This document shows, piece after piece, positions 920 through 30,494 of a DNA stretch of 32,158 nucleotides. Origin of the DNA: Nanobdellota archaeon. GTDB taxonomy: Archaea > Nanobdellota > Nanobdellia > Pacearchaeales > GW2011-AR1. Position numbers and translations under genes: made by a program. The notes beneath the pieces are model-generated. The model searched no databases. It was not told the DNA's origin and saw only the letters and a program-made list of their open reading frames with translations. Positions within the stretch are counted from its first letter, which is position 1; each line of letters begins with the position of its first letter. The DNA lies in NCBI GenBank assembly GCA_038045105.1, contig JBBSYU010000025.1:1-32158 (forward strand), read 5' to 3'.

Positions 920-920
920 A

Positions 921-2597: not shown

Positions 2598-2640
2598 TAT
2601 GAAAAAAATGGATAATAAAAATATTGGCAATGTAAAAAGA

Positions 2641-2680
2641 GGTATTTGTAATACAAAACTTTTTAAAAAAGTTTTAACAC
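2641..2680. repeat. Palindromic module P, copy 1 (GGTATTTGTAATAC-AAAACTTTTTAAAAAAGTTTT-AACAC)
   Basis: Nearly identical to 9160-9197 and 15199-15237. The core AAAACTTTTT/AAAAAGTTTT is a 10-bp palindrome. Confidence 0.8.
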
Positions 2681-2682
2681 AT

Positions 2683-2737
2683 CAGAAAATCTATGAGATT
2701 TTCTGTGCCCAAAAATTCTTATGAAAGAATTTTTTGG
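2683..2737. repeat. Twin stem-loop insert
   Basis: Hairpin 1 is CAGAAAATC-TATGA-GATTTTCTG (2683-2705). Hairpin 2 is CCAAAAATTCTT-ATGA-AAGAATTTTTTGG (2709-2737). The segment is absent from the otherwise collinear copy at 15180-15300. Confidence 0.7.
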
Positions 2738-2829
2738 AAATCGGGATTTATCCTGACATGATATAAAACTGATGAGTTATGCAGATGAGATGATTAAAAG
2801 AGAATGAGAAACAAAACTATTAAAATAAA

Positions 2830-7181: not shown

Positions 7182-7190
7182 AAACTTAAC

Positions 7191-9146: not shown

Positions 9147-9157
9147 AAACAATAAAT

Positions 9158-9330
9158 GAGTATTAGTAATACAAAACTTTTAAAAAAAGTTTTAACAAAA
9201 ATTAAAAATAATGTGAAATAAATAAGTTATGAAGATGAGTGAGCAAGATGAGTAAGAATATAGAATATACAACTGATAACCTAACAATCAACACACAACA
9301 TAACATTTAAACAATTAACATTACCAGAAT
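9158..9330 (+). repeat. MITE-like intergenic repeat, copy 5 (carries palindromic module P)
   Basis: GAGTATTAGTAATAC is followed by module P, then AATGTGAAATAAATAAGTTATGAAGATGAGTGAGCAAGATGAGTAAG...CTGATAACC...AATTAACATTACCAGAAT. The element ends 4 nt before ATG 9334. Confidence 0.75.
9160..9197. repeat. Palindromic module P, copy 2
   Basis: GTATTAGTAATACAAAACTTTTAAAAAAAGTTTTAACA. It matches copies 1 and 3 except for the T/A run partition at the centre. Confidence 0.8.
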
Positions 9331-9333
9331 AAC

Positions 9334-10032
9334 ATGATAAACAAATCAATAAAAAACAAAATTTTATTCATGGGAATTTTACTATTGACAAATATATTAA
9401 TGACGAATATAATCAGTGCCAGTCCTTTTTATTATAAAATTTCCATGGATTATAATAAAGATGTGATTGATATTAAAGAGATTGGAGTTATATTTTCACA
9501 AGAAGATTTAACAAATGGTTATGGAAGTTATAATATTGAAACTATTGATGCAAATAATAAAAAAATAGATTCTCAAAACTTTGTTGTGCCAAATACAAGA
9601 TTTTATGATAAAGGTGAGAATGGGAATATTAGTGAGGGAGGAAGTGTTGTTCTTGAAAATGTTTCTTTTATTGTTTATGCTCCTTATTATGCAAATGCAA
9701 AAGAGATAATTATTTATGATAAAACAAATAAAGAATTAACAAAAGCTGATGTAAGCATGTATTCCAGGATAACAGAAAAAGAAAATGTGATTAACAATGT
9801 TGGGGGAGACAAGGATGAGTATGGATGCTTGATTGCTGCTGGTTATTCATGGTGCGAAGAAAAGCAAAATTGCATAAGAACATGGGAAGAGACATGTTCT
9901 TCTGCAAAAAAAACTGAAAAAACCTCTGGTAATAACTTGTTGGAAAACATTTCTAATTATTGGTGGGTTTTGATTATAATATTAATAATCCTTATTATAA
10001 TACTTGCATATGCTATGAAAAAGAAAAGATGA
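9334..10032 (+). CDS. Exported protein with C-terminal TM anchor (candidate sorting-signal protein)
   Basis: 232 aa with N-terminal signal ILFMGILLLTNILMTNIISA. A 4-Cys motif GCLIAAGYSWCEEKQNCIRTWEETC is present. The C-terminus is NYWWVLIIILIILIIILAYAMKKKR. Confidence 0.8.
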   Translation: MINKSIKNKILFMGILLLTNILMTNIISASPFYYKISMDYNKDVIDIKEIGVIFSQEDLTNGYGSYNIETIDANNKKIDSQNFVVPNTRFYDKGENGNISEGGSVVLENVSFIVYAPYYANAKEIIIYDKTNKELTKADVSMYSRITEKENVINNVGGDKDEYGCLIAAGYSWCEEKQNCIRTWEETCSSAKKTEKTSGNNLLENISNYWWVLIIILIILIIILAYAMKKKR

Positions 10033-12489: not shown

Positions 12490-13023
12490 ATGTCTATGAT
12501 AAAAAAGAGGGTTAGAAATAAAAAATCCCAAGAAGCTATTGGAATGTCATTTTCAATGATATTTTCAATTATCTTGATAATATTTTTTATTGCTGTTGCA
12601 TTCATGGCAATAAGATATTTTTTAAAAGTGCAAAACTGCGCAAGAGTTGGAGATTTTGTCAGTGAAGTAAAGATAAAGACTACAGAAGCATGGGATTCGC
12701 AAAAATCAGGTTTTGAAAAAAAATATATTCTTCCGTCTAATCTTGAGTATGTCTGCTTTGCAGATTTGTCACAGGAGCTTAGGGGGCAAAATGAAGCAGT
12801 ATTGGAGGACTTAGGATTTTTTCAGGAATGGGAAAAATCAAATATGCTTTTATATCCAAAAGGAAATTCATGCAATATGCCTGTGCATAATATAGAGCAT
12901 TTAGATATTGCAAAAATGACAAAAACAAAAAATCCTTATTGCATTGAAGTTAAAAGCGGGCAGATTACACTTAAATTTGAAAAAGGATATGTTGACAGAC
13001 TGGTTACTATTTCAGGTGTGTGA
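12490..13023 (+). CDS. Class III (type IV pilin-like) signal-peptide protein
   Basis: 177 aa with N-terminus MSMIKKRVRNKKS/QEAIGMSFSMIFSIILIIFFIAVAFMAI. 4 Cys in the mature part. Confidence 0.65.
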   Translation: MSMIKKRVRNKKSQEAIGMSFSMIFSIILIIFFIAVAFMAIRYFLKVQNCARVGDFVSEVKIKTTEAWDSQKSGFEKKYILPSNLEYVCFADLSQELRGQNEAVLEDLGFFQEWEKSNMLLYPKGNSCNMPVHNIEHLDIAKMTKTKNPYCIEVKSGQITLKFEKGYVDRLVTISGV

Positions 13024-13028
13024 ATAAT

Positions 13029-13168
13029 ATATATTTGTAATAGAAAAACCTAAGAAGTTATGAAGATGAGATGATTAAATGAGATAAACAGAAATAAAAT
13101 TTGAGAATCAGAAGCTATAACAAATCAACAGATGTATCATATCTCAAATTACATACAATTCCAATAAA
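13029..13168 (+). repeat. MITE-like intergenic repeat, copy 7a
   Basis: ATATATTTGTAATAGAAAAACCTAAGAAGTTATGAAGATGAGATGATTAAATGAG...AGCTATAACAAATCAACAGATGTATCATATCTCAAATTACATACAATTCCAATAAAT. Confidence 0.85.
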
Positions 13169-13175
13169 TAAGATA

Positions 13176-13292
13176 AAATATCGGTAATGTAAAATAAATA
13201 AGTTTTGCAGATGAGATGATTAAAATATTAGTGAGGAGCAAAATTATGGAACAGATGATATAACTAATAAAAAACATACAATACTAAGGTAA
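13176..13292 (+). repeat. MITE-like intergenic repeat, copy 7b
   Basis: AAATATCGGTAATGTAAAATAAATAAGTTTTGCAGATGAGATGATTAAAAT...AACAGATGATATAACT...ACATACAATACTAAGG. Confidence 0.8.
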
Positions 13293-13294
13293 GA

Positions 13295-13428
13295 AATTAT
13301 TAGTAATAAAAAAACTTGAGAGATATGGATGAGCAGATTAAGAGAGTAAGAAGGTAGTAGAAAAAACTGATAACATACTTAACAACTGATACTCTAACTC
13401 TTAAATTATATACGATACTGACATAATA
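13295..13428 (+). repeat. MITE-like intergenic repeat, copy 7c
   Basis: AAATTATTAGTAATAAAAAAACTTGAGAGATATGGATGAGCAGATTAAGAG...CTGATAACATACTTAACAACTGATACTCTAACTCTTAAATTATATACGATACTGACATAAT. Confidence 0.75.
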
Positions 13429-13451
13429 AAATAATCTAAAAAAAGAGAGAT

Positions 13452-14396
13452 ATGCTAAAAAGAAGCAATAAAAAAGCAATTGAAATGGGTTTTAACTGGT
13501 TATTTGCAATAATAGCAGGAGGTTTTATACTTTTTATTGCTGTTTATTCTGCAAGCAAATTCATTGGAATTTCAGAGCAGAAATATGGGACAGAAAGTGC
13601 TGCAAAATTTGTATCTCTTTTTGACCCTCTTGAAATAGGACTTGTTGCTGGAAAATCCTCTGAAATTGATTTTGTGAAAAATACAAGAGTTTTTTTTGAT
13701 TGCGATGCAGATGTCAATGCTCCTTTTGGAAGGCAGACTATTTCTTTTTCAGAACAGATGTTTGGGAAAAAATGGAGTGAAAAAAGCAACAGGGTATCAA
13801 TAAAAAATAAGTATGTTTTTAGTGAAAATGTTGTTGAAGGCAAGAGATTCTATCTTTTTTCATTTCCTTTTTCAATGCCTTTTAGTATTGGAGATATTGT
13901 TATAACTGAATCTGGAAGTTATTGTTTTTATGATGCTCCTAATGAGATTGTTGATGATATTGAAGGGCTTAATATTAAAAATGTAATATTTCCTAATTTA
14001 ACAACCGAGTGTAATGGAATAAAAGTTTGTTTTGGAGGACATAGCAAATGTGATATTAAAGTATCAACTTCTGAAAGTTATGTTGAAAAAAACGGGAAAA
14101 AGATGTATTATTATGGAAATTTGATATATGGCGCTATTTTTTCTTCTCCTGAAAATTATGAATGCAATGTCAAGAGATTAATGAGCAAGCTAAATGAATT
14201 AGGCAAAATCTATATTAGCAAGATAAAAATAATGGAAAGAGAAGATTGTGAGCCAAAGATTGAGGCTAAATTAAGCATGGAAATGGGAATTGCTAAGAGC
14301 ATCACTTCTTCAAGAGATTTAATCAGGCTTGGAATTAGTTCAGAAGAAATTGATGAAATAAATGAGGCTGGAAAACCAGGATGCAAGCTGTATTAG
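13452..14396 (+). CDS. Class III (type IV pilin-like) signal-peptide protein
   Basis: 314 aa with N-terminus MLKRSNKKA/IEMGFNWLFAIIAGGFILFIAVYSA. 8 Cys in the mature part. Confidence 0.55.
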   Translation: MLKRSNKKAIEMGFNWLFAIIAGGFILFIAVYSASKFIGISEQKYGTESAAKFVSLFDPLEIGLVAGKSSEIDFVKNTRVFFDCDADVNAPFGRQTISFSEQMFGKKWSEKSNRVSIKNKYVFSENVVEGKRFYLFSFPFSMPFSIGDIVITESGSYCFYDAPNEIVDDIEGLNIKNVIFPNLTTECNGIKVCFGGHSKCDIKVSTSESYVEKNGKKMYYYGNLIYGAIFSSPENYECNVKRLMSKLNELGKIYISKIKIMEREDCEPKIEAKLSMEMGIAKSITSSRDLIRLGISSEEIDEINEAGKPGCKLY

Positions 14397-14418
14397 GATG
14401 AAACTAATGAATAAAATC

Positions 14419-14548
14419 TATATTGGTAATATCAAAAAAACTGACAAGTTATGGGTGAGATGATTAAATTGAGTGAGAGTATAGCAAAAAACTGATAACT
14501 CGCTTAACAACTGACACCATAACTTTCAAATTATATGATACCAATACT
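14419..14548 (+). repeat. MITE-like intergenic repeat, copy 8
   Basis: TATATTGGTAATATCAAAAAAACTGACAAGTTATGGGTGAGATGATTAAATTGAG...CTGATAACTCGCTTAACAACTGACACCATAACTTTCAAATTATATGATACCAATAC. Confidence 0.85.
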
Positions 14549-14550
14549 AT

Positions 14551-14569
14551 GTTGGTAATCAATTCCAAC
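14551..14569. repeat. Terminus-only mini element (left and right termini fused: GTTGGTAATCAATTCCAAC)
   Basis: TTGGTAAT (left-terminus core) abuts AATTCCAA (right-terminus core) with no interior. It lies directly after copy 8. Confidence 0.45.
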
Positions 14570-14575
14570 AAGAAT

Positions 14576-15151
14576 ATGATAAATAAAATAACCAAAAAAT
14601 CAAAGAAAGGGCAATTAAATATACAGGAAATGGCATTTATGCTTGTGGCTGTTGTATTGTTTTTTGGACTTGTTACTTTGTTTGTGCTTACAATTGTGTA
14701 TAAAAACATGTATTCGCAGTTAAATATAATAAATCAGGAAAAAACACTTACCTCTCTGATAAATCTTGCTGATTCTCCTGAATTTCGGTGCGTTACTACA
14801 AAATCCAATTGTGTTGATGGTGATAAAGCTATTTCTCTGATGAACAGAACTGTTTATTCTAATTTTTGGGGGTTCAGCAGCCTGACAATAATAAAAATGA
14901 GTGGTTTTGCTAAAAATGAAAGCCAGTTGATAAAATGCAATATTGCTAATTATCCTGATTGTGATTTAATTGTTATTTATGATAAAAAGGTTAAAAATGA
15001 AAGGGCAATATCAAGTTATGTTGCTTTTTGCAGGAAAAAATATGAAAAAGTTGACACTTATACAGGCTATACATATGATAAATGCGAGATAGCTAAACTA
15101 GTGGCTGGCACAGAACTTAAAAACACGCCTGGAACAGCGCCTGCGAGATAA
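14576..15151 (+). CDS. Class III (type IV pilin-like) signal-peptide protein
   Basis: The ORF track starts at 14549, inside repeat sequence. I prefer ATG 14576, giving MINKITKKSKKG/QLNIQEMAFMLVAVVLFFGLVTLFVLTIV. 6 Cys in the mature part. Confidence 0.7.
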   Translation: MINKITKKSKKGQLNIQEMAFMLVAVVLFFGLVTLFVLTIVYKNMYSQLNIINQEKTLTSLINLADSPEFRCVTTKSNCVDGDKAISLMNRTVYSNFWGFSSLTIIKMSGFAKNESQLIKCNIANYPDCDLIVIYDKKVKNERAISSYVAFCRKKYEKVDTYTGYTYDKCEIAKLVAGTELKNTPGTAPAR

Positions 15152-15179
15152 AATGATAAAAATAAAAAATCAAAAAATA

Positions 15180-15375
15180 AATATTGATAATGAAAAGAGG
15201 TATTAGTAATACAAAACTTTTTAAAAAAGTTTTAACAAAATCAGGATTTATCCTGACATGATATAAAACTGATGAGTTATGCAGAGGAGAGATTAAACTA
15301 GTGAAAGTAGATTAAAAGACTGATAAACACTTAATCAACAAATGACATAACTGCTAAATAATTAACATTACCAAC
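15180..15375 (+). repeat. MITE-like intergenic repeat, copy 9 (composite; uninterrupted paralogue of copy 2)
   Basis: AATATTGATAATGAAAAGA is followed by module P, then ATCAGGATTTATCCTGACATGATATAAAACTGATGAGTTATGCAGAGGAGAGATTAAA...CTGATAAACACTTAATCAACAAATGACATAACTGCTAAATAATTAACATTACCAAC. Confidence 0.8.
15199..15237. repeat. Palindromic module P, copy 3
   Basis: GGTATTAGTAATACAAAACTTTTTAAAAAAGTTTTAACA. It differs from copy 1 at about 2 positions. Confidence 0.85.
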
Positions 15376-15391
15376 AGCCCTTTTGGAAAAT

Positions 15392-15412
15392 CCAGAAAAT
15401 GAAATTTTCTGG
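15392..15412. repeat. CAGAAAAT hairpin module, copy 2 (CCAGAAAAT-GAA-ATTTTCTGG)
   Basis: 9-bp perfect stem. The same stem sequence occurs at 2683-2705 and 27144-27165 with a different loop each time. Confidence 0.7.
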
Positions 15413-15432
15413 CTCTTCAAAACTAAAAGTTT

Positions 15433-16002
15433 ATGAAGAAGTCCTGGGGTAAAAAAATAATAAACATGATACCAAAATCAAAAAAATCGCAGCACGAGGC
15501 ACTGGGATTTGTGCTTATAGTTGCTATTGTAACTATAATAATTGTTATTTTTCTTTCATTATCTGCTGGAAAAGGCAATGTAATGAGGCAGAATAGTGTT
15601 GAAATATCTAATTTACTTCAGGCTTCTATTTATTATACTTCAGAATGCGCTATTAATTTTGTTCCACAATATCAGGAAGTGCAGGATTTAATATCTGCAT
15701 GCTATAAAAATCCAGAGCAAAAATGCTTGAATGGAACAGATGTCTGCCAGGCTTTAAATGAAACAATAAAAAAGGTTATAGAACAAAGCCTGAGAATCAG
15801 CCCTGATTCACCTAATAAAGCCTATAAATTAAATATATATTATAGTCCTTTGAATAATATCCAAAATAAAGAGATAATATTGTTGTCTGAAAAGGGTGTT
15901 TTTGACAAGTGCAAGTCAAGGCCAGGTGGAAGTTATTCATTACCTGCTGGAACATTCAGTTCTTCAACAATAAACATAGAATTAGAAGTTTGTGTTGGAT
16001 GA
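15433..16002 (+). CDS. Class III (type IV pilin-like) signal-peptide protein
   Basis: 189 aa (alternative start ATG 15466). The N-terminus is ...MIPKSKKS/QHEALGFVLIVAIVTIIIVIFLSL. 6 Cys in the mature part. Confidence 0.65.
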   Translation: MKKSWGKKIINMIPKSKKSQHEALGFVLIVAIVTIIIVIFLSLSAGKGNVMRQNSVEISNLLQASIYYTSECAINFVPQYQEVQDLISACYKNPEQKCLNGTDVCQALNETIKKVIEQSLRISPDSPNKAYKLNIYYSPLNNIQNKEIILLSEKGVFDKCKSRPGGSYSLPAGTFSSSTINIELEVCVG

Positions 16003-16876: not shown

Positions 16877-17731
16877 TCAAAAATTTCCGCTTCTTATTTT
16901 TTCCAATTCACTTCTGTCTTGCTCTAATTTTCTTTCAGCTTCTTTTATTTTTTCTTTTCTTTGTTTTATCTTGCCGATTTCTTCTTGTGCAAGCTTTATT
17001 TTTTCTTCTACTGCATTTAAAGCATCATCATCAGAATCATAACCTGATTTTTTATCAAAATATTCCTTAGAGCTTACTACCTTAAATGACTGATTTTTGT
17101 TTTTCAGCCTTTTTTTAGCAAAAACAACCATAAAAAGAATAACTATTATAAAAACAATTCCTATTACAAAATAAAGAGTTAATTTCCAGTTGATTTTTGA
17201 ATTTACTTTTGAACCAAAATCTTTTACATTAACTGCAAAGCCTGTCAAACCTATTTTAGATTTATTTGTTTCTTGAATGTCTGTTTGTTTAGACTCATTT
17301 GCAAGGGGAGTTGCAGTTAAATTGGTTTCAGTGATGTTTGTTTGATTTACAACCGGTTCTATCTCTTTTTTCTCTATTATGCTAACATTACCTGGAATAA
17401 AACTTATGTATACTGGGCTCCCTGTTTTTATATTTTCAATTCTTTCATTTAAAACAGTTTTTGAATCCTCTTTCAAAATCAATCTTAAATCAATTGATTT
17501 TTCACTAAAAGAATTTGAAACAAGGACTTCTCCATTCATACCTGTCCCTTTTGTAGTGCTGTTCTTAATTAGAACATAGGTTTCCCCAGACTGAAGATAT
17601 TGTATGAATAATTTTCTATTTGGAAGAGTTTTAATGCTTATGTCTGTTGCTGCGGCTAAAATATTTGCTACTAAAAGTAATAAAAAAATCAAAAATATTA
17701 TTAGTTTTTGTTTACCTTCTTTTCTTAACAT
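16877..17731 (-). CDS. Type I membrane protein with cytoplasmic coiled-coil tail
   Basis: 284 aa with signal LIIFLIFLLLLVANILAAA and TM LTLYFVIGIVFIIVILFMVVFA. The charged C-terminal tail is EEKIKLAQEEIGKIKQRKEKIKEAERKLEQDRSELEKI. Confidence 0.75.
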   Translation of the reverse strand: MLRKEGKQKLIIFLIFLLLLVANILAAATDISIKTLPNRKLFIQYLQSGETYVLIKNSTTKGTGMNGEVLVSNSFSEKSIDLRLILKEDSKTVLNERIENIKTGSPVYISFIPGNVSIIEKKEIEPVVNQTNITETNLTATPLANESKQTDIQETNKSKIGLTGFAVNVKDFGSKVNSKINWKLTLYFVIGIVFIIVILFMVVFAKKRLKNKNQSFKVVSSKEYFDKKSGYDSDDDALNAVEEKIKLAQEEIGKIKQRKEKIKEAERKLEQDRSELEKIRSGNF

Positions 17732-17793
17732 CTTAAATAGAGTAATATGCTCTTTATAAATTTTTTTATAGTGTTAAGATTATGTAGTTAAGA

Positions 17794-18189
17794 TTATAAA
17801 TCAATTGTTATAACAACCTGGTCAGCATCAACAATAGGCATTAGCAATTCTCTTCCTTTTTTATGCGACGCAATCAATTCTATAAAACCAAATTGCTCCA
17901 GAATTTTAATATCATGCCTTACTGATTTGAAATCCCTTCCCAAGAGCTTTGCCAATTGATATATTGATTCTGGTTTTTTAGTCTTTGCAATATGCAAAAG
18001 CCTTGCTTTTTCATTGCTCAGTATATGCCTTATATTTGAAACTTCTGATGCCCTGATATCTTTAGAATCTCCTTTAAGTTTATGAAATATTGATGAAAAA
18101 GTGCCTTCTTTCAATGAAACTGAAATATTTTTAATTTGTTTTGCCATATCTGAATCTATTTTTATCTGTGTTTTTAATAAACAGGGCAT
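17794..18189 (-). CDS. Winged-helix (ArsR/MarR-like) transcriptional regulator
   Basis: 131 aa (the likely true start is MAKQIK at 18147). ESIYQLAKLLGRDFKSVRHDIKILEQFGFIELI is an HTH plus wing pattern. The gene is divergent from the S-layer-like gene. Confidence 0.6.
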   Translation of the reverse strand: MPCLLKTQIKIDSDMAKQIKNISVSLKEGTFSSIFHKLKGDSKDIRASEVSNIRHILSNEKARLLHIAKTKKPESIYQLAKLLGRDFKSVRHDIKILEQFGFIELIASHKKGRELLMPIVDADQVVITIDL

Positions 18190-18406
18190 ACTATATAAAT
18201 CTTTCCATATATCTGAGATATATATATTTATGATACTGGTTTATGATTATAATATATGTCATAAAATATAGTGTATCTTAAAAAAATAGATTTTAAGAGC
18301 TTGAGATAGATTATAAAAGATGTCTAATGATTAGTATCTATTTGTCAGTTACAACATAAGGTTTATAAATAAATGCCTTAAAAATAGTATTTCTTAGAAA
18401 TATTTT

Positions 18407-18420
18407 ATGCTTATAAGCAT
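18407..18420. promoter_or_regulatory. 14-bp perfect palindrome ATGCTTATAAGCAT in the 412-bp regulator/S-layer intergenic region
   Basis: Read directly. Confidence 0.3.
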
Positions 18421-18464
18421 GCTAAGGCAGAAAGCTTTTTAAACAAAAATTAATATAGGTTTGT

Positions 18465-18487
18465 ATTACTTAATCTAATTAAGTAAT
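18465..18487. promoter_or_regulatory. 10-bp perfect inverted repeat ATTACTTAAT-CTA-ATTAAGTAAT upstream of the S-layer-like gene
   Basis: Read directly. It has the same 10+3+10 geometry as the vapBC palindrome. Confidence 0.3.
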
Positions 18488-18601
18488 AATAAACTGGCTG
18501 GTTTATACAGTTTTTTCAAAAAGAGATGACAGTAACAAAAGTCTGTAAAGAATTTAAAAAACAGACATTAATTATTATATTAGTGAAAGGAGGTTTAAAA
18601 A

Positions 18602-21226
18602 ATGAAATTTAATTATAAAAAAATAGCTTCTGTGTTAGCTAGCGCAATAATGCTATCAAGCACTATTGGATTCGCTGCTGCTGTAGGCACATATCCTGCA
18701 CCTTTTGTTGCAGGAGGAACAGCTAATGGAGCTGTTATTGTTGGTGCAAATGCAGCCCCAAGTGATTGGGCTTTAGCTATTGATGTTGGACAAAAGCTTA
18801 GCGCTCTTGTATCATCAGGAACAACAAGCACAAATGTTGCAACAACAGGAGAAACAGCTGCGCTGTTTACTAGTTCATCAAAAATCAATGTAAATGACAC
18901 ATTGAGACAGGTTAAAACTGTTTTAACAAAAAGTGAACTTCCTACTGTCTTGAAAGACCAGAGTTTTTCAGGAAATGTTGATGCTACTCTTGTTCAAACT
19001 ATTGATCTTGGAACAAATCCTGCAATAACGTTTGCAAAACAACCAGTATCTACAAATGATCCTAGATTAGGATTAACAGTAGCAACAAGCACTAATAATG
19101 TTATTTACAATTCTTCTGTAACATTTAACAAGGCTGTTAATTTAAGCCATGCTGATTCAGAAGGACAGGAAATAACTTTGTTTGGACAGAAATTCACTAT
19201 TGCTGCTGCAACTAGTGATACTGATTTAGTGTTATTAAAGTCAGCTCAAAAAGTTTCTTTAACATCAGATAGTCCTACGGCAGAAGTTACTGTTGGTGGA
19301 AAAACATACACTATTGAATTAATCTCATCATCAGATACTGCTGCAACTATAGCTGTTACTGATGATGCTGGAACAACAGAAAGCAAAGAAGTTAGTGAGG
19401 CTGCTTCAAAAAAGATTAATGGATTAACAATTGCTGTTAATACTGCTGATGAAACTAATTTGAAATTATCAGCATCTGTAATTGCAGGCGCTGAAAAAAT
19501 GACTTTTACTTCTGGAGGCGCTGTAACAACTGGAGATTCTGCAACTTCAATTGAGGGAACTCTTGTTACAATGACAGGAGGAGTTGGTGCAATGACAAAA
19601 TTAGTTATAGGTATTGCTGCAAAAAATTCAGATAATGATGCAATAATGCCTGGAGAAACTTTTGTAGATCCTGTATTTGGGACATTCAAAATTGATTTTT
19701 CAGGTGGATTGAATATTGCTGATACTTTTACTGATAATGCACAAAGAGAAAGCTTTGAAGTAAGAAATGTTGGTGATGACAAGATGTCAGTAAAATTCAA
19801 GAATCATAAAGGTAATGAGGCAACTGTTCAGTTTGCAAAAAATACAACACATACAATGCAACTTGCTTATGATGATGATATCAAGAATATAACTGTTCTT
19901 GAAAAAGAAAGTATACTTAAAAATGGTTATGTTGTGGTAGGAAATCAAGATGAGGGATACTTGTTAAGAGTTTCTACATTAACAAATTCTTCTGCTCATT
20001 CAAATGACAAAATTGTTTTAACAGATGTGTTTGATACTTCAAGCACATATACAGCAACAATAACGGCAGAGGGAGTAGGAACAATAACTATTGGAGGAAA
20101 AGTATATAATGTATATGGTAATATCACTAATGTTGACAGTGATAGTATTGTTTTAGATTATCCTGATAGTTCTGCTGCTGGTTCAATAATTGCATATCCT
20201 ACAATACAAACTTCAAAGGGAGCAAAGATTGCTTTCTATGAACCATTGACAATAAATTTAGTGGATGTTGATGGACGTTTAGCTACAACAACTGCGGCTA
20301 CGCAATTAAAAATTCCAGATGGGGATGGTTATACTGATTTTACACTTACTCATTTAACAGGAGCAGGTAATTGGACTATTGGAACTCAGACAATTAATAC
20401 TACTGATCCAATAGAAGCTGGCAATGCAAATTTAACTGTTGGTAGGTTAATTTTTACAGCAGTTTCTACAGCAGTATCAAACCAAACTAAGCTTTATCTT
20501 AGAGACCCAACAACTCCACAGACTCTTATCAGAGACCCTGCATTAATCATTTTTGAAGAAAAAGATGATGCAACAAATTATGAAGCAATAGTTATTACTT
20601 TAGAGACAGGTGCAACAAGCACTGATGGTATTGGAGTGGATGATATTATAAGAACATGGGGCGGTGATAGTGTTTGGGATGCAACAGCTCTTGCAAGCAA
20701 GAGCACACATTCAAAAGAAGTTGATTTGTTTGGAACAATTGCATTAGTTGACACTGGAGATAGTGACCAAGCAACTGCAATAATAAGTTATCCTGACGAG
20801 CAACTTTATGCACAATTATATATTGGAACTGAAGCTTCTGCAATAACTCCTGGAACATCTGTATCAGGAGGAGGAGGACAGGTTCTTGTTGTAAAAGACA
20901 CTCAAGTTGACTCTGTTAAAGACAAAAACTTGTTTGTTGTTGGAGGAAGTTGTATCAATGAAGTTGCTGCAAAAATATTAGGGGCAAGTACTCCTGTTTG
21001 CGGTGCTGACTTTACTAACATAGCTAAGATAAGTGCTGGAGGGTATATAATAAAAACTGTTGAATCTCCTTATAGCGCAACTAAAGTGGCAACACTTGTT
21101 GCTGGTTATAATGCTGATGATACTTCAGTTGCTGTTGCTAAAGCCTTAACAGGTGTTGCAACAGACAAAGATACTTCAATAACATATCCAGAACTTTCTA
21201 CAGGCACAACTACAACAACTGAATAA
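18602..21226 (+). CDS. S-layer-like major surface protein
   Basis: 874 aa. A strong SD (AAAGGAGG) lies 8 nt upstream, and the signal is KIASVLASAIMLSSTIGFAAA. The protein is Thr/Ser/Ala/Val-rich and acidic with many N-x-S/T sequons. A long oligo-T terminator follows, and GC is higher than in neighbouring genes. Confidence 0.6.
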   Translation: MKFNYKKIASVLASAIMLSSTIGFAAAVGTYPAPFVAGGTANGAVIVGANAAPSDWALAIDVGQKLSALVSSGTTSTNVATTGETAALFTSSSKINVNDTLRQVKTVLTKSELPTVLKDQSFSGNVDATLVQTIDLGTNPAITFAKQPVSTNDPRLGLTVATSTNNVIYNSSVTFNKAVNLSHADSEGQEITLFGQKFTIAAATSDTDLVLLKSAQKVSLTSDSPTAEVTVGGKTYTIELISSSDTAATIAVTDDAGTTESKEVSEAASKKINGLTIAVNTADETNLKLSASVIAGAEKMTFTSGGAVTTGDSATSIEGTLVTMTGGVGAMTKLVIGIAAKNSDNDAIMPGETFVDPVFGTFKIDFSGGLNIADTFTDNAQRESFEVRNVGDDKMSVKFKNHKGNEATVQFAKNTTHTMQLAYDDDIKNITVLEKESILKNGYVVVGNQDEGYLLRVSTLTNSSAHSNDKIVLTDVFDTSSTYTATITAEGVGTITIGGKVYNVYGNITNVDSDSIVLDYPDSSAAGSIIAYPTIQTSKGAKIAFYEPLTINLVDVDGRLATTTAATQLKIPDGDGYTDFTLTHLTGAGNWTIGTQTINTTDPIEAGNANLTVGRLIFTAVSTAVSNQTKLYLRDPTTPQTLIRDPALIIFEEKDDATNYEAIVITLETGATSTDGIGVDDIIRTWGGDSVWDATALASKSTHSKEVDLFGTIALVDTGDSDQATAIISYPDEQLYAQLYIGTEASAITPGTSVSGGGGQVLVVKDTQVDSVKDKNLFVVGGSCINEVAAKILGASTPVCGADFTNIAKISAGGYIIKTVESPYSATKVATLVAGYNADDTSVAVAKALTGVATDKDTSITYPELSTGTTTTTE

Positions 21227-21860: not shown

Positions 21861-22442
21861 ATGAGAAAAATAATGACTAGAACAGAATTGGAAAGGAAAA
21901 GCAGGAGAAACCAGTGGATAGTTGGAGGAGTATTAATGTTAATAATGTTATTCAGCACTCTTGGTTATGCATTAAATTATGAAACAAAAACTACGACAGA
22001 AGTTGTTGATTATAAAGGTATAAAATTCATAAAAAGCGACAGTTACTGGAACTTTAACAGCCAGGGACAGAGCCTTATTACAAGATATAATCCAGAAGAA
22101 ACAAAAAATATCAGTCTTATTGGAATAAATATAAACCTTAATGATTATAAAAACAAACCATTATATTTTGTTGGAAATTTTCAGGAAACAAATAATGAGT
22201 TAGGGAGAAATATAAATACATTTGTATTAAGAATGCAGGATGCATGTCTGGAAGGTGAAAACTGCACTTCTGATTTTCCTGTTAAAAGTTGCTCAGAGGA
22301 TAATGTAATTGTTATAAAAGAGCCTTATGAAAAAATTAAAGAAAGTGTTTATAAAAATGAAAAATGCATTTTTATAACTGCAAATCTTGAAAATCAGACA
22401 AGATTTGCAGATGCTGTTTTGTTTAAAATTCTGGGTATCTAA
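21861..22442 (+). CDS. N-terminally membrane-anchored exported protein (hypothetical)
   Basis: 193 aa with RKSRRNQWIVGGVLMLIMLFSTLGYAL. 4 Cys in the mature part. Confidence 0.7.
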   Translation: MRKIMTRTELERKSRRNQWIVGGVLMLIMLFSTLGYALNYETKTTTEVVDYKGIKFIKSDSYWNFNSQGQSLITRYNPEETKNISLIGININLNDYKNKPLYFVGNFQETNNELGRNINTFVLRMQDACLEGENCTSDFPVKSCSEDNVIVIKEPYEKIKESVYKNEKCIFITANLENQTRFADAVLFKILGI

Positions 22443-22469
22443 TTCTATTTTAATTTATAATATTAATTT

Positions 22470-22563
22470 TAAAAAAGTTATAGCATCTGTTCATTTCTTT
22501 GTTTCTCATTAACATATTAATCTCCTCACCCATAACATCTTAGTTTTTTGTATTACTGATAAT
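22470..22563 (-). repeat. MITE-like intergenic repeat, copy 11 (one terminus eroded)
   Basis: AAAAGTTATAGCATCTGTTCATTTC...CATATTAATCTCCTCACCCATAACATCTTAGTTTTTTGTATTACTGATAAT. Confidence 0.65.
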
Positions 22564-22630
22564 CTATTACATTTAAGACATAGTTTTTCTTATTCATAAT
22601 CTTTAAAAAGCAAGTTTTTCTTTAATTAAT

Positions 22631-23479
22631 ATGCCAAGAAAAAAGAAGATAATTGAAAAAAAAGAAAAAGGAGAAATTATTGAAGATGGTACAGAGAAAA
22701 ATATAGAAATAAATAGAAGCAATGAAAAAGTTCAGGAGGAACAAAAAATACAGGAAGAATCTTCATTAAAAGAAAATGATAAGAAAAAACAAAATAGCCA
22801 GATAAAGATTGCTGTTATTTTAATGATTTCAATAATTGCTGTTATAATTATAGCTCCTTTTATTTATGGTCATTTTTTTACTAAATTCTACTATATTAAT
22901 CTTGAATTTCAAAAAACAAAATTAGGAGATTTAAAGTTTTATTCTACAAGAATTCCCATTGCTGACCAGTCTCCTGCTGAAGGACAGTTACTTGACAGAG
23001 ATAAAAAAACAGCTGAATATTTTATTAATTTAAGGGCTGATCCAAGAAAATTAGACAATGTTAAGGTAAATCTTAGCTATAATAATACAGAGCAATTAGA
23101 TTTTATGAGAGCAAATGAGGTTTACATATCTTTTGATCCTAAAATGAAAAAATGCGATGATAATTCTGTTGCTTTGATAGATCTTTCTGGCTTTCTCAAG
23201 GAATTTGCAGGACTTAAAATAAAATCTGCTGTTTCAGATAAAAATGCTTCAGCAGAACTAAAAATCCCATATGTAACCTGCAATAAAAGCCAGTATATTA
23301 CTGTGATAAATATAAGAAGTGGAAATGAAACAAAAATACAAAAAACAGGCGGAAATTGCTATGAATTAACATATGCAGATTGCGAGATAATACAGGTTAC
23401 TGAAAAATTTAATCTTATTCTTATTGAGCAGTATATGAAATATTTTGAAGAAAAAAAGAGCTGGTGGAATTTTGGATAG
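22631..23479 (+). CDS. Membrane-anchored protein with Lys/Glu-rich cytoplasmic N-terminus (hypothetical)
   Basis: 282 aa. A ~65-aa charged N-terminus is followed by TM IKIAVILMISIIAVIIIAPFIYG and an extracytoplasmic domain with Cys pairs. Confidence 0.7.
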   Translation: MPRKKKIIEKKEKGEIIEDGTEKNIEINRSNEKVQEEQKIQEESSLKENDKKKQNSQIKIAVILMISIIAVIIIAPFIYGHFFTKFYYINLEFQKTKLGDLKFYSTRIPIADQSPAEGQLLDRDKKTAEYFINLRADPRKLDNVKVNLSYNNTEQLDFMRANEVYISFDPKMKKCDDNSVALIDLSGFLKEFAGLKIKSAVSDKNASAELKIPYVTCNKSQYITVINIRSGNETKIQKTGGNCYELTYADCEIIQVTEKFNLILIEQYMKYFEEKKSWWNFG

Positions 23480-23498: not shown

Positions 23499-23616
23499 AA
23501 ATCAGTAATACATATCATTTAAGAGATGTTGGTGAGAAGATTAGGTTATGGAAGATTAAAATAAATCTCTTAATCAACTAATTAAACAACTTCTAAGAAT
23601 TAGACATTACCAAATT
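23499..23616 (+). repeat. MITE-like intergenic repeat, copy 12 (TTAATCAACTA subfamily)
   Basis: AAATCAGTAATACATATCATTTAAGAGATGTTGGTGAGAAGATTAGGTTATGG...CTCTTAATCAACTAATTAAACAACTTCTAAGAATTAGACATTACCAAATT. Confidence 0.75.
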
Positions 23617-23668
23617 ATTTAGCTGATTTTCAGATAGATATTTAAAGATTATTCCTTTAAATTAGATT

Positions 23669-24235
23669 ATGAAAAAAAGAGCGAAAAGAAAAGAAAATAA
23701 GCCTGAAAATGTTAAGTCCTCTGATAACATACCTGCTGTTTTAATAAGATATTTAATATTATTGGGATTAATGTTTTCTCTGCCTTTAATTTACAGGATT
23801 TTTGCTCCTTTGACAATGTATCCTGTTGTCTGGTTGCTTAAGATTTTCTATAATGTTTCTCTTTCAGGAAGTTTTATATTAATCAATCTTATTCCAAAAA
23901 TTGAACTAATTCCCGCATGCATAGCTGGTTCTGCTTATCTATTGCTTTTAATTTTAAACCTGACTGTTCCTATGAAGATTAAGAAAAGGATTTATTCAAT
24001 AATTCTCTCTTTTTTGCTTCTGCTTATATTAAATATATTGAGAATCTTCTTTTTAGCAATACTTTATCATAATAATTTTGCTTATTTTGACATTACACAT
24101 AAATTCTTCTGGTATTTCCTAAGCACTATATTTGTTGTAGGAATCTGGTTGTTTATTGCAAAGATATTTGCAATAAAAGAGATACCTGTTTATAGTGATA
24201 TAAAGGGATTGATGAAAGATCTGAAAAAGAAATGA
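23669..24235 (+). CDS. Exosortase/archaeosortase-family protein (short, archaeal type)
   Basis: 188 aa with about 5 TM segments. Conserved-looking Cys (IPACIAGSAYLLL), Arg (LILNILRIFFLAIL) and His (DITHKFFWYFLSTIFVVG) occur in the order expected for the family's Cys/Arg/His triad. Confidence 0.65.
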   Translation: MKKRAKRKENKPENVKSSDNIPAVLIRYLILLGLMFSLPLIYRIFAPLTMYPVVWLLKIFYNVSLSGSFILINLIPKIELIPACIAGSAYLLLLILNLTVPMKIKKRIYSIILSFLLLLILNILRIFFLAILYHNNFAYFDITHKFFWYFLSTIFVVGIWLFIAKIFAIKEIPVYSDIKGLMKDLKKK

Positions 24236-24275
24236 TTTTATTAGAATTATTATATTTCTCCTTCCTGCCACTCTT

Positions 24276-24418
24276 TTCTTATTGGAATTGCCTATCTCTT
24301 ATCAGTTATGGCTTATGTTGATTAAGCGAGATTGTAGTTTTTGTTGCTCTCTTACTTTCCTCACAACCATCTTAATCTTCCCATAAACATTTCTCATATT
24401 GTAGATTACTGAAATATT
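24276..24418 (-). repeat. MITE-like intergenic repeat, copy 13a
   Basis: TTCTTATTGGAATTGCCTATCTCTTATCAGTTATGGCTTATGTTGATTAAGCG...CCATCTTAATCTTCCCATAAACATTTCTCATATTGTAGATTACTGAAATATT. Confidence 0.7.
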
Positions 24419-24420
24419 TT

Positions 24421-24577
24421 ATTAGAATCATAAAAATTTTAACAGAGGTTTAATTAGTTGATTAAATTTTGACATCTGATAATTTGTTTTACTTTTGAAT
24501 TCATATCTTCCTGCTTCTCATCTCAATAACTTAATCTCCTTATAAATAACTTATCAGTTTTTAACATTACCAATATT
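24421..24577 (-). repeat. MITE-like intergenic repeat, copy 13b (TTAATCAACTA subfamily)
   Basis: ...GGTTTAATTAGTTGATTAAATTTTGACATCTGATAATTTG...CTGCTTCTCATCTCAATAACTTAATCTCCTTATAAATAACTTATCAGTTTTTAACATTACCAATATT. Confidence 0.75.
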
Positions 24578-24691
24578 TATTGGAATTGCATATTATTTAA
24601 AATATGGAGCATCTGTTGATTTGTTATGGCTTATGTTTCATGTCTCTTGCTTCTCATCTGCACAACTTCTTAGTTTTTATATTACTAATAC
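24578..24691 (-). repeat. MITE-like intergenic repeat, copy 13c
   Basis: TATTGGAATTGCATATTATTTAAAATATGGAGCATCTGTTGATTTGTTATGGCTTATG...CTTGCTTCTCATCTGCACAACTTCTTAGTTTTTATATTACTAATAC. It abuts 13b terminus-to-terminus. Confidence 0.8.
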
Positions 24692-24742
24692 ATTATCAAA
24701 AGATAGATAATAAATATTACTAAAAAAATATATAAGAAATTC

Positions 24743-26467
24743 TTATTGATATCCTTCTCTTGGAGAAGAAACCATTCTTCTTATAACAGCGATTATAGCT
24801 ATGATTAATATTAAATTAACCAATACTATCAAGTATATGAACCAGTTGTTCTTAAAGTGATTAACAACTGACTGATAGTCTGTTGATTGTGCTTTTACAA
24901 CTGAAAGAGATACTTTTTGTTCAACTGCTTTGTCTCCTGCTGTTCCATAAGCAGCCCTTATTATAAATTCTTTGTCTCCTTGTGCTGCTGAATCTACATT
25001 AAGAACTATGCTTGCATCTTTTGATTGTCCTGGAGAAAGTGTTATAGTCTGGGGGTCTATTGAAACTAGGCTTGACCATGCACTATTTCCATATATTGAT
25101 AAAGTATAAGTAGTGTCTGTAGTTCCTGTATTTTTCAGTGTTGCCTGGATTATTACTTGTTTTCCTGCTGATGCTTCTGGTGTTTGGGGGTCAAGCTGAG
25201 CTGATATTTTTAATTGAGAGGCAGGTGTTGTTGGAGTTGCTGCTTGGCAATTTCCTAATACTTTAATTGTTTTTGTGAATTTCTTGCTTGATATTTCGCT
25301 GTAACTTCCTGAACCACTGTCATCATAATCATAATATGTTTTAAATTCTAAATCATAAGATTTTTCAGCAGCTTTAGCAGGTATGTTAAAACTAAAGTCC
25401 ACTGTGTATGAATCTCCCTGGTCAAGGTCTTCTTGTATTACCTGATTTAAGTCAATTCCTAATTCTTTATTATATAGTGTAACTTTAAACTGATCTAGAT
25501 AATCAACATCACCTATATTTACAACCTCTGCAGAAGCCTGAACAGTATCACTGCATTGAGCTGTTTCTTCTGGTGACAATACTATCTTGTCAACAACAAC
25601 ATGTTTATCAATATCTTCTTCTCTTGTTCCAGAGACTGCTTGAAAATATCTTCCATCTAAATCAGAAGAAAAAGAACTGCATATCTGGTCTTCTTTTCCA
25701 CTTGAATAAGTTTTTATTACAAGATTATAATTTCCTTCTTTAAAGTCTGTTGGAACATTAAATTTGAATTCAACTGTTTTCTCCTTGCTATCTGCAAGAC
25801 TGCTTAAGCTTATTTTTTTATTATCTAAATTATCCATATTTCCAATAACATTTTTTCCAGTTGAATCAAGTAATCCTAATTCAACATAAACACTGCTTAC
25901 TCTATTATTTCCTGTATTTTCAACTTTTACTTTAACACTTATTGGATCTAAAGGCGTCCATTCAGTGTCATCTCCATCATCATTTCTTATATCCACACTA
26001 GATATTGTTAATGTTTGGTCAGCTGTTCCGACTTCTCCTGATTTACAAAATGTGCTTAAAAATTTTACAGGTATAGTTAAAGGATGAGTGATAGAAGAAT
26101 TAGTAACAGATGTTGCTGTTGCAATTATATTTTTTGTATATTCTCCTACTTTAAAATTAGTCGCATCTCCTGAATAAGCAAAACTTATCAATCCTGTGTT
26201 TTGATTTGTTAAAACATTATTATAAACCAAAGATGAAGGTGTTGTAAGTGTAAGAATATGTGTGTTTCCATCATCAAATATAATAGGAAGCCCTGTAAGC
26301 TGTATATTTACTGCATCTGTTCCTGAATTAGTTATTGTAAAATTAGTCTGTGTAAGTGATTTTGTTAAACTAGCAGGAGTTGTTGAAGCGATTAGGACTG
26401 CTGCATTGACAACTGCAAGTGTTAAAATTGTCGTTAATAAAAATAAAGATATTATTTTTGATTTCAT
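24743..26467 (-). CDS. Surface protein with CARDB/COG1361-like beta-sandwich repeats and a C-terminal TM anchor
   Basis: 574 aa with signal IISLFLLTTILTLAVVNA. Repeated motifs are VENTGNNRVSSVYVELGL, VVNIGDVDYLDQFKVTLYN and LKNTGTTDTTYTLSIYG. The C-terminus is NNWFIYLIVLVNLILIIAIIAVIRR. The gene is convergent with the archaeosortase-family gene. Confidence 0.8.
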   Translation of the reverse strand: MKSKIISLFLLTTILTLAVVNAAVLIASTTPASLTKSLTQTNFTITNSGTDAVNIQLTGLPIIFDDGNTHILTLTTPSSLVYNNVLTNQNTGLISFAYSGDATNFKVGEYTKNIIATATSVTNSSITHPLTIPVKFLSTFCKSGEVGTADQTLTISSVDIRNDDGDDTEWTPLDPISVKVKVENTGNNRVSSVYVELGLLDSTGKNVIGNMDNLDNKKISLSSLADSKEKTVEFKFNVPTDFKEGNYNLVIKTYSSGKEDQICSSFSSDLDGRYFQAVSGTREEDIDKHVVVDKIVLSPEETAQCSDTVQASAEVVNIGDVDYLDQFKVTLYNKELGIDLNQVIQEDLDQGDSYTVDFSFNIPAKAAEKSYDLEFKTYYDYDDSGSGSYSEISSKKFTKTIKVLGNCQAATPTTPASQLKISAQLDPQTPEASAGKQVIIQATLKNTGTTDTTYTLSIYGNSAWSSLVSIDPQTITLSPGQSKDASIVLNVDSAAQGDKEFIIRAAYGTAGDKAVEQKVSLSVVKAQSTDYQSVVNHFKNNWFIYLIVLVNLILIIAIIAVIRRMVSSPREGYQ

Positions 26468-28302: not shown

Positions 28303-28746
28303 TCACTCATTCATTCTGTTTCTGTCTCTGTCCCTATCTCTGTCTCTGTCCCTATCTCTGTCTCTATCCCTGCCATCCCTATCCTGCGGAGGCGCTGGTC
28401 TTTCAGAAGACTTGTGGATTTCTGCAAAAGAAGGTGTTACAATAATTATGTTTTCGCCAAAACCAGCTATGCTTCCTTCTAAAGCATCTGTTGTCTTTTT
28501 TATTTTGGAAATTGCTCTTTTTAATTCAATAACATCCTTTGCCCTTAATGGTTTTATGTCAATTATTGCAATTGTATAACCTTCTCTTAAAGAATTAAGA
28601 ATAGGTGTAATGTCTTCAAAGCTTTTTAGAACAAAAGGACGCACTAAAATCTTGGATTTTTTGACTTCTCTGCCTAAGTCAATCTCAATATATTCTGGCT
28701 CGTCACCGCCTCCTCCGAACACTCTTTTTAATTTATCAAACACCAT
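28303..28746 (-). CDS. sepF: Archaeal SepF-like cell-division protein with C-terminal Arg-Asp dipeptide-repeat tail
   Basis: 147 aa. The N-terminal amphipathic MVFDKLKRVFGGGG is followed by the core ILVRPFVLKSFEDITPILNSLREGYTIAIIDIKPL...GSIAGFGENIIIVTP, typical of SepF/DUF552. The tail is RDGRDRDRDRDRDRDRDRDRNR. Confidence 0.75.
   Translation of the reverse strand: MVFDKLKRVFGGGGDEPEYIEIDLGREVKKSKILVRPFVLKSFEDITPILNSLREGYTIAIIDIKPLRAKDVIELKRAISKIKKTTDALEGSIAGFGENIIIVTPSFAEIHKSSERPAPPQDRDGRDRDRDRDRDRDRDRDRNRMNE
28321..28374. repeat. 3 x 18-nt tandem repeat (TCTGTCTCTGTCCCTATC) encoding the (RD)n tail of SepF
   Basis: Units lie at 28321-28338, 28339-28356 (identical to the first) and 28357-28374 (2-3 substitutions). 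Confidence 0.85.
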
Positions 28747-30420: not shown

Positions 30421-30494
30421 TGGGGTCGCTGAGATTTGAACTCAGATCGCAAAGTCCCAAACCTTGAATGTTAACCAGATTGCACCACGACCCC
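30421..30494 (-). tRNA. tRNA-Pro (anticodon UGG), no encoded CCA
   Basis: The reverse complement folds as a cloverleaf. The acceptor is GGGGTCG/CGACCCC. The anticodon stem is CAAGG/CTTTG with loop TTTGGGA (anticodon TGG, G37). The T arm is CTGAG-TTCAAAT-CTCAG and the discriminator is A. Length 74 nt. Confidence 0.9.

Follow-up and report, generated by a model that had tools for sequence, protein, structure and literature searches.

The window, a stretch of 32,158 nucleotides from a Nanobdellota archaeon, encodes a pacearchaeosortase, assigned by profile search to the minimal (about 170–200 amino acids) branch of the exosortase/archaeosortase polytopic cysteine endopeptidases, and, convergent with it, a 574-aa PACE-CTERM protein. 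The latter is very probably its single dedicated substrate and, by analogy with ArtA, would be processed in an ArtA-like manner. Both families are already known and named by NCBI models, and to this extent the identification is correct and largely ordinary. What is added beyond the curated names is a corrected sorting motif, a conserved intramembrane Asn, evidence for a single substrate and a link to a PAP2-type phosphatase. The features of the window are collected in Table 1.

Table 1. Positions of the features discussed in the text, numbered from the first nucleotide of the window.
Feature	Position	Strand	Remarks
232-aa secreted Cys-rich protein, C-terminal TM anchor (NYWWVL...KKKR)	9334..10032	+	
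874-aa secreted S-layer-like protein	18602..21226	+	PF05124 S_layer_C, 32 bits
193-aa gene and 282-aa gene (one TM helix)	21861..23479	+	Conserved neighbours, synteny
Inverted repeat, left arm, 18-nt perfect, TTAATCAACTAATTAAAC	23570..23587		Flanks sortase gene
TATA-like box ATATTTAAAG	23638..23647	+	Ends 21 nt before sortase ATG; candidate promoter
Pacearchaeosortase gene, 188 aa	23669..24235	+	NF033505, TIGR04178, invariant Cys/Arg/His
Cys84 codon tgc	23918-23920	+	Putative catalytic residue
Arg125 codon aga	24041-24043	+	Putative catalytic residue
His144 codon cat	24098-24100	+	Putative catalytic residue
Inverted repeat, right arm	24448..24465		Flanks sortase gene
PACE-CTERM putative S-layer protein gene, 574 aa	24743..26467	-	NF033506
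PACE-CTERM sorting signal, residues H537-Q574	24746..24859	-	Counts over 125 distinct tails

The 188-aa protein matched NF033505 ('pacearchaeosortase') with 191.3 bits (cutoff 80; E 1.2e-56), the match being full-length, from residue 23 to 185 of the protein and from position 3 to 166 of the 167 in the profile. This supplied the subfamily assignment by HMM search that the original prediction had called for. TIGR04178 (exo_archaeo) also scored above its cutoff (35.3 bits, cutoff 23; residues 80–165, profile positions 3–93 of 97). Pfam PF09721 (Exosortase_EpsH) reached 17.4 bits, below its gathering threshold of 25.7; a precomputed match to this family is present on many homologues of the sortase. 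These homologues number more than 1100, and several are named pacearchaeosortase by NCBI in Pacearchaeota or Nanoarchaeota MAGs. The branch is found in Pacearchaeota and in further Nanoarchaeota (DPANN). Next in rank among the NCBIfam matches, over the catalytic region (residues about 66–168), came short exosortase-family enzymes of dedicated one-to-one systems (such as XrtX, XrtH and XrtY) and heimdallarchaeosortase; membership of these models was rejected on scores far below their cutoffs (32 against 170, 21 against 86 and 21 against 130).

The motifs PACIAGSAY, NILRIFF and THKFFW, by which the protein had been predicted to belong to the exosortase/archaeosortase superfamily, are present at residues 82–90, 122–128 and 143–148. 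Cys84, Arg125 and His144 within them were invariant in an alignment of 21 diverse homologues (56–71% identity), which, with the TIGR04178 score, bears out the prediction. A Cys/Arg/His triad has been proposed for the family (bioRxiv 10.1101/2023.06.07.544157), and Cys173 and Arg214 of ArtA are needed for its activity (PMC9263693). Cys84 and Arg125 lie 41 residues apart, as do C173 and R214, the comparison with ArtA consisting of this spacing and the invariance. The sequence has hydrophobic segments and basic N- and C-termini, and the AF2 model (mean pLDDT 77) is helical and polytopic, with helices at residues 21–60, 87–99, 104–134 and 143–166 plus an amphipathic C-terminal helix. A polytopic integral membrane protein is thus predicted. 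A search of PDB sequences with a sortase profile returned nothing at E≤1, nor did a Foldseek search of the PDB with the AF2 model at E≤0.001.

The two convergent open reading frames of the original prediction were found in place, with a 507-nt gap between them. The 574-aa protein matched NF033506 ('PACE-CTERM-PROT, putative S-layer protein') with 373.3 bits (cutoff 110; E 2.6e-111). The match covers residues 24–566 and profile positions 112–625 of 627, and so includes the C-terminal signal, in agreement with the claim that the neighbour is a surface protein ending in a motif, a TM helix and basic residues. A Sec-type signal peptide is followed by CARDB and NPCBM-associated Ig-like domains (Pfam CARDB, NPCBM_assoc); the S-layer role is putative, being the prediction of the NCBIfam curator. 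In all related loci holding both genes (±10 kb around each sortase was compared) the two are strictly adjacent, with gaps of 22–1853 nt. As both proteins match their respective models, the lineage-specific sortase/substrate pair that had been suggested is real, yet already curated, and the signal is not the new one it was taken for: NCBIfam holds NF033505 and NF033506, and NCBI already names homologues accordingly. The window resembles the curated pair in full-length matches, adjacency, taxon group and C-terminal signal, and nothing essential differs.

The window also shares conserved synteny with eight genome-collection relatives. The titles of six describe archaeal MAGs (Pacearchaeota, Nanoarchaeota, Woesearchaeota); of the other two, one is an unclassified 'archaeon' and the second (L007) bears the label Candidatus Paceibacterota bacterium. 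Nearly every related locus has the 193-aa and 282-aa genes flanking the sortase; their products matched no Pfam or NCBIfam family above cutoff.

The tail of the 574-aa protein reads HFKN-N541-W-F-I-Y, then a TM helix (residues 546–562) containing Asn551, then R563-R564 and finally MVSSPREGYQ. It is a tripartite signal and, as had been noted, not of the PGF-, PEF-, PEP- or VPXXXP-CTERM type. A common tail was found on 84 homologues, and the family-wide signal is [HN]-[LIF]-[KR]-x-N-W-[FY]-[IL]-[YW], with a TM helix and then a basic cluster after it. The signature adjoins the helix without a spacer, as PGF-CTERM and PEP-CTERM signatures do. Within the helix the positions N, L, I and A-I-I are near-invariant; the intramembrane Asn, ten residues past the motif Asn, is present in 125/128 tails. 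Nowhere is the PACE-CTERM protein more conserved than in a stretch of 28 residues of its tail (majority-residue fraction 0.80, compared with 0.55 for the body). The 10 residues past the basic pair, kept as M-x-S-P-[RK] in this clade, are atypical for tripartite signals. The intramembrane Asn is analogous to the near-invariant Asp-Pro that lies mid-TM in JDVT-CTERM (myxosortase-type), nine residues past the signature residue, although that system is bacterial and has a Cys-based motif and an Rce1-like glutamic protease. Tail subtype correlated with sortase similarity (rho 0.43); this correlation is not relied on, because it is confounded by shared phylogeny.

Both tails quoted in the original prediction were located at the nucleotides given there, and apart from the ORFs of the 574-aa and 232-aa proteins no real ORF of the window finishes with a TM helix and basic tail. 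The motif N-x-W-[WF], said to be common to them, proved to be out of register. Its first residue (position -11) is N in only 21/125 distinct tails of the S-layer-like family, while the next residue is N in 123/125, followed by W in 103/125; N-x-W-[WF] was accordingly rejected as the common motif, the invariant pair sitting one residue later. As a regular expression with TM helix and basic tail, it matched 9/65 family tails in related loci. The corrected NW[FY][IL][YW] matched 48/65, and 0 of about 1470 other ORFs.

A search of a library of 1.84 billion representative proteins with the tail profile stood in for genome-wide partial phylogenetic profiling. It gave 315 hits, of which the best 150 were all C-terminal; 141 of these 150 were new, 132 with an S-layer-like body and 9 being fragments of ≤124 aa. 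In the related loci the profile matched one protein per locus. Among the best 150 of the 315 hits the tail is thus essentially confined to one protein family, and the system accordingly looks dedicated, pairing one enzyme with one substrate instead of several. 'Dedicated' one-to-one sorting systems, with enzyme and single target encoded by neighbouring genes, have been described in the literature.

The original prediction had instead taken the 232-aa protein for a second substrate, a reading in which the sortase would serve several proteins that share N-x-W-[WF] plus TM plus basic tail. The 232-aa tail is the second-best match to the PACE-CTERM tail profile outside the S-layer-like family, at 11.3 bits (other TM anchors, 2–7.5 bits); this corresponds to an E of 0.012 in a search of only 1534 ORFs. 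The register differs (N-Y-W-W-V instead of N-W-F-I-Y) and the Asn typical of the PACE-CTERM helix is absent. Six orthologues (P0206–P0211) strongly keep an aromatic stretch at the outer helix end, but as a conserved tail of their own, [NSQ]-Y-W-W-V-L plus TM plus basic end (Y-P-R-K-K-K in four of them), again without the TM Asn; plain TM anchors commonly have an aromatic belt where the helix meets the membrane surface. In none of the other loci (about 90) was a homologue of the 232-aa protein present within 10 kb of the sortase. In favour of several substrates, one related locus (L040) encodes a second CARDB-like protein (17512-18798) with a closer tail, KNKFLYV..., at 22 bits. Given the differing register, the missing Asn and the one-family distribution of the best library hits, we consider a multi-substrate system unlikely, and the 232-aa protein is not retained as a substrate.

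The preferred reading, an enzyme dedicated to the 574-aa protein, takes its proposed mechanism from the Haloferax ArtA/PGF-CTERM system. Sec would export the substrate, which its C-terminal TM helix would then retain transiently. The sortase would recognize N-W-[FY]-[IL]-[YW] adjoining the helix, probably along with the intramembrane Asn, and Cys84, aided by Arg125 and His144, would cut away the helix and basic tail. The new C-terminus may then be passed to a membrane lipid, or the protein freed into the envelope. Cleavage, its site and lipid attachment are what we infer from this analogy; a literature search found no paper or experiment on pacearchaeosortase or PACE-CTERM.

The likeness to ArtA of Haloferax volcanii extends, beyond the residue spacing, to the common TIGR04178 signature and to the substrate, a (putative) S-layer protein in which a motif adjoins a TM helix and basic residues come after the helix. 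The window enzyme is smaller (about 190 aa; the 912-bp artA gene encodes about 300 aa) and its signal is N-W-[FY]-[IL]-[YW] with an intramembrane Asn instead of P-G-F. It appears to serve one substrate; in H. volcanii the PGF-motif proteins number nine, and genomes with ArtA have 1 to 52 predicted substrates. Membership of ArtA/PGF-CTERM was rejected: the PGF motif is absent from both the 574-aa and the 232-aa tails, and no ArtA-specific model was among the NCBIfam matches of the sortase at E≤1.

Another view of the tail is that its helix anchors the 574-aa protein permanently, as in Sulfolobus SlaB, the sortase acting elsewhere or else maturing or turning over the protein without lipid transfer. 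The conserved cytoplasmic extension (M-x-S-P-[RK]...) could then be a functional tail rather than a discarded peptide, and a tail-less S-layer-like protein encoded nearby could be the lattice that the 574-aa protein anchors. A plain anchor needs hydrophobicity alone, yet the helix positions are near-invariant and the helix-boundary motif is invariant, a pattern that suggests a specific reader within the membrane. The retention of the invariant Cys/Arg/His by the enzyme and the strict gene adjacency across hundreds of lineages likewise argue against a permanent anchor, which we judge very unlikely.

The S-layer-like protein in question, of 874 aa, had correctly been described as lacking such a tail: it has a signal peptide and an S-layer N-terminus (PF05124) and no TM tail. 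It is encoded 3.5 kb from the PACE-CTERM gene and has homologues in the related loci L002–L008 and L096, a conserved synteny partner and possibly the lattice subunit.

Under processing of one dedicated substrate, a DPANN archaeon with a reduced genome would keep a minimal archaeosortase for one envelope protein. The enzyme of roughly 190 aa and the signal of about 38 aa are probably the smallest natural enzyme–signal pair of the superfamily, and would therefore make a practical model, both for structure prediction and for heterologous experiments on the way in which exosortase-type enzymes read a signal within the membrane.

A membrane phosphatase of the PAP2 type (polyprenyl-diphosphate-phosphatase-like) is encoded divergently from the sortase in 35/66 related loci with enough upstream sequence. 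The spacer between the two genes is most often exactly 48 nt, with one palindromic TATA box, and on several occasions the two genes were inverted together. Two differences set the lineage of the window apart from the curated pair: the sortase is flipped, and hence convergent with its substrate, and PAP2, present in about half of the relatives, is absent. No remnant of it was detected, either by BLASTP among the window ORFs or by tblastx of the spacers against other loci. In the ArtA system PssA and PssD are involved; neither was noted near the window sortase, and the relatives link a PAP2 phosphatase instead. The divergent linkage, the 48-nt spacer and the inversion as a unit suggest that PAP2 may supply the lipid acceptor. 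On this proposal PAP2 would be a third component of the system, lost or moved in the lineage of the window, and would provide the acceptor for the S-layer protein C-terminus by an anchoring chemistry unlike that of ArtA. We regard it as speculative and rather improbable.

The family tree shows inversion of the sortase gene, alone or with PAP2, against unchanged neighbours on six or more separate branches. In the window it is flanked by a perfect 18-nt inverted repeat, longer than the maximum obtained by shuffling (13 in the window, 12–15 in sister contigs) and present only in the window and contigs of its own population. Beyond this core, the spacers around the sortase (189 nt and 507 nt) held no significant extended repeat or conserved element, no DNA or translated (tblastx) similarity to other loci, no Rfam family and no convincing small ORF. 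The repeat and the recurrent inversions would suit a programmed invertible segment, bounded by the 18-nt arms, that toggles S-layer processing by phase variation. Such a switch is highly improbable, however. All five other population contigs with an identical sortase carry it in the same orientation, none in the opposite one; other flipped loci are without a significant flanking repeat; and no recombinase gene was found among the window ORFs scanned. Moreover, a TATA-like box belongs to the segment itself, and inversion would therefore leave the promoter attached to the sortase. This box is a candidate promoter for a transcription unit of the sortase itself, and most related loci have a TATA-like element with the consensus ATTATTTAAATAG at an equal spacing ahead of the sortase ATG.

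The 188-aa polytopic protein, encoded in a window of about 30% G+C, was compared with family models. NF033505 ('pacearchaeosortase', NCBIfam) covered it over its full length at 191.3 bits (cutoff 80), and the superfamily signature TIGR04178 was passed at 35.3 bits versus a cutoff of 23, confirming the predicted membership of the exosortase/archaeosortase family. The NCBIfam models for XrtX, XrtH, heimdallarchaeosortase and XrtY matched the same region more weakly and below threshold, and Pfam Exosortase_EpsH was also below threshold (17.4 versus 25.7). More than 1100 relatives were found in the homologue search; several, in Pacearchaeota and Nanoarchaeota MAGs, are already called 'pacearchaeosortase' by NCBI, and Hainich groundwater contigs carry an identical sortase.

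The convergent neighbouring ORF, across a 507-nt gap, encodes a 574-aa S-layer-like protein that matched NF033506 ('PACE-CTERM-PROT, putative S-layer protein') up to the profile end at 373.3 bits (cutoff 110) and contains CARDB and NPCBM-associated Ig-like domains (Pfam). It has 84 relatives among the matches listed, several of them called 'putative S-layer protein'. The lineage-specific sortase/substrate pair of the original prediction is real and its family was correctly assigned, but the system is already curated, as NF033505 and NF033506. Since these NCBI names exist and a literature search found no publication naming pacearchaeosortase or PACE-CTERM, the pair appears to be known to curators yet unpublished. 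The details that go beyond the curated names are a corrected motif, an intramembrane Asn and a single substrate and, likewise unpublished, a PAP2 partner with a candidate bidirectional TATA box and recurrent gene flips.

Coordinates of the sortase, its substrate and other features (window positions unless a locus is named)
Feature	Position	Strand	Remark
Sortase ORF, 188 aa	23669-24235	+	ORF reading
Cys84 codon	23918-23920	+	within sortase ORF
Arg125 codon	24041-24043	+	within sortase ORF
His144 codon	24098-24100	+	within sortase ORF
S-layer-like protein ORF, 574 aa	24743-26467	-	ORF reading
874-aa secreted protein	18602-21226	+	signal peptide; N-terminal PF05124 'S-layer like' match
SepF homologue, (RD)n repeat at end	28303-28746	-	housekeeping context
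tRNA gene	30421-30494	-	Rfam 54.7 bits; adjoins ribosomal L11 and Spt5 genes
PAP2 example	L001 (related locus) 3963-4592	-	immediately upstream of sortase; likewise in 34 other loci

The Cys, Arg and His motifs first noticed in the sequence were present and their codons were located. As predicted, C84, R125 and H144 were unchanged across 21 aligned homologues (56-71% identity), in which N97, N122, T143 and W148 were likewise invariant. Cys/Arg/His is the triad proposed for the superfamily (Haft, bioRxiv 10.1101/2023.06.07.544157). ArtA activity requires Cys173, Arg214 and Arg253 (PMC9263693), and its Cys-to-Arg spacing of 41 residues equals that of the window sortase. The AF2 model of the sortase (mean pLDDT 77) is polytopic and helical, with a small beta-hairpin ahead of Cys84; neither sequence search nor fold search returned a solved structure resembling it.

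Both predicted C-terminal tails were found in place, and the 574-aa protein and a 232-aa protein are the only real ORFs of the window with a strong TM helix and basic cluster at the C-terminus. The motif proposed for them, N-x-W-[WF], did not hold: its first N is a variable position, and it matched only 9 of 65 family tails. When 125 distinct tails were anchored on the intramembrane Asn, the PACE-CTERM motif read [HN]-[LIF]-[KR]-x-N-W-[FY]-[IL]-[YW] (N in 123/125, W in 103/125). The core NW[FY][IL][YW] matched 48/65 family tails and none of about 1470 other ORFs. Of 128 tails, 125 have the helix Asn, exactly +10 from the motif Asn; near-invariant helix positions further include L(+3), I(+7) and A-I-I. 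The helix is followed by [RK]-[RKS]-M and, in the window clade, by an extra S-P-[RK]...[FY]-[EDQ] extension. Nowhere is the S-layer-like protein better conserved than in this stretch (0.80 versus 0.55). Its signature adjoins the helix with no spacer, a layout also described for exosortase and archaeosortase signals (bioRxiv 10.1101/2023.06.07.544157).

The sequence-level prerequisites of an ArtA-like mechanism are present. With ArtA as the model (PMC6098224; PMC7157517), the substrate would be exported by Sec and anchored transiently by its C-terminal helix; the membrane-embedded enzyme would recognize N-W-F-I-Y together with the intramembrane Asn and form a thioester on Cys84, to be resolved by a lipid amine, another acceptor or water. 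Cleavage and lipidation of the substrate are what we infer from this analogy.

The 232-aa protein had been proposed as a second substrate. When every ORF of 94 loci (856 kb) was searched with a tail profile, each locus yielded one strong match, always the S-layer-like protein; beyond these, only two matches were notable, the 232-aa protein (11.3 bits, E 0.012) and, in the related locus L040, a 428-aa CARDB-like protein (22 bits). A search of 1.84 billion representative proteins with the same profile returned 315 matches at E<=1e-3. The match was at the extreme C-terminus in all of the best 150, of which 141 were new; 132 of these had an S-layer-like body and the remaining nine were fragments of <=124 aa. 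Orthologues of the 232-aa protein keep a different tail, [NSQ]-Y-W-W-V-L, a TM helix without Asn and a basic end (Y-P-R-K-K-K in four), and the 232-aa protein itself is encoded within a conserved cassette of three genes without linkage to the sortase. From the profile results and the differing tail we conclude, on sequence grounds, that the sortase probably serves the S-layer-like protein alone, as in the dedicated one-to-one systems described previously (bioRxiv 10.1101/2023.06.07.544157), and that a second substrate in the window is unsupported.

Sortase and substrate genes adjoin in every locus holding both, within a kept order: 193 aa, 282 aa, sortase, S-layer-like protein, 120-aa TM protein, Dph2, SepF, prefoldin. 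The usual arrangement, found in most loci, places the sortase downstream of the substrate gene and in the same direction. With its neighbours unchanged, it is flipped in the window, in L096 and L097 (the closest relatives of the window) and in L003, L017, L019, L022, L030, L035, L056 and L083; on a neighbour-joining tree the flipped loci occupy at least six separate places. Five sister contigs of the window share its orientation. In the window lineage alone, a significant inverted repeat (18 nt, perfect, TTAATCAACTAATTAAAC) flanks the sortase (23570-24465). A TATA-like box about 22 nt upstream of the sortase ATG, in the window and most relatives, suggests that the gene is its own transcription unit, so that flips would be harmless.

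Of the 66 loci whose upstream sequence is long enough, 35 have a PAP2-superfamily membrane phosphatase gene that divergently adjoins the sortase; the window has no such gene. In 19 of the 35 the spacer measures exactly 48 nt and is centred on a palindromic TATA-like box (TATTTAAATA; ATTATTTAAATAG), which is a candidate for a bidirectional promoter. PAP2 and the sortase flip together as a single block relative to the conserved neighbours.

The 507-nt gap (24236-24742) holds no ORF, no Rfam match and no similarity to other loci. It contains direct repeats: 24279-24323 resembles 24577-24621 (45 nt, 71%), and GTTATGGCTTATGTT occurs at 24305 and 24623.

The L040 CARDB-like protein (17512-18798, +), of which the window contains no homologue, is secreted, has a PACE-CTERM-like tail (KNKFLYV...RIKRRK) and lies 7 kb from the L040 sortase; in that genome it may serve as a second substrate. 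The three-gene cassette (window 6444-10032; L094, another related locus, 884-4410) encodes proteins of 245, about 650-670 and about 232-236 aa and received no family assignment. Its position in L094, two genes upstream of a gene with a Bro-N domain, suggests that it may belong to a mobile or viral element. The 232-aa protein bears a widespread Cys-rich module, GGDKD..GCLIAAGYSWCE...C.RTWEE.C.

The 874-aa protein lacks a TM tail, as originally stated; it has no membrane anchor and its synteny is conserved. Together, it and the anchored PACE-CTERM protein could make up an envelope of two components, a lattice and a stalk, by analogy with SlaA/SlaB. The products of four consecutive genes at 12490-16002 (+; 177, 314, 200 and 189 aa) each begin with a basic N-terminus and then a hydrophobic helix, resembling the signal peptides of type IV pilins or of class III; the synteny of these genes with the sortase region is conserved in the related loci L002-L007. 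The SepF and tRNA/L11/Spt5 genes are ordinary housekeeping context.
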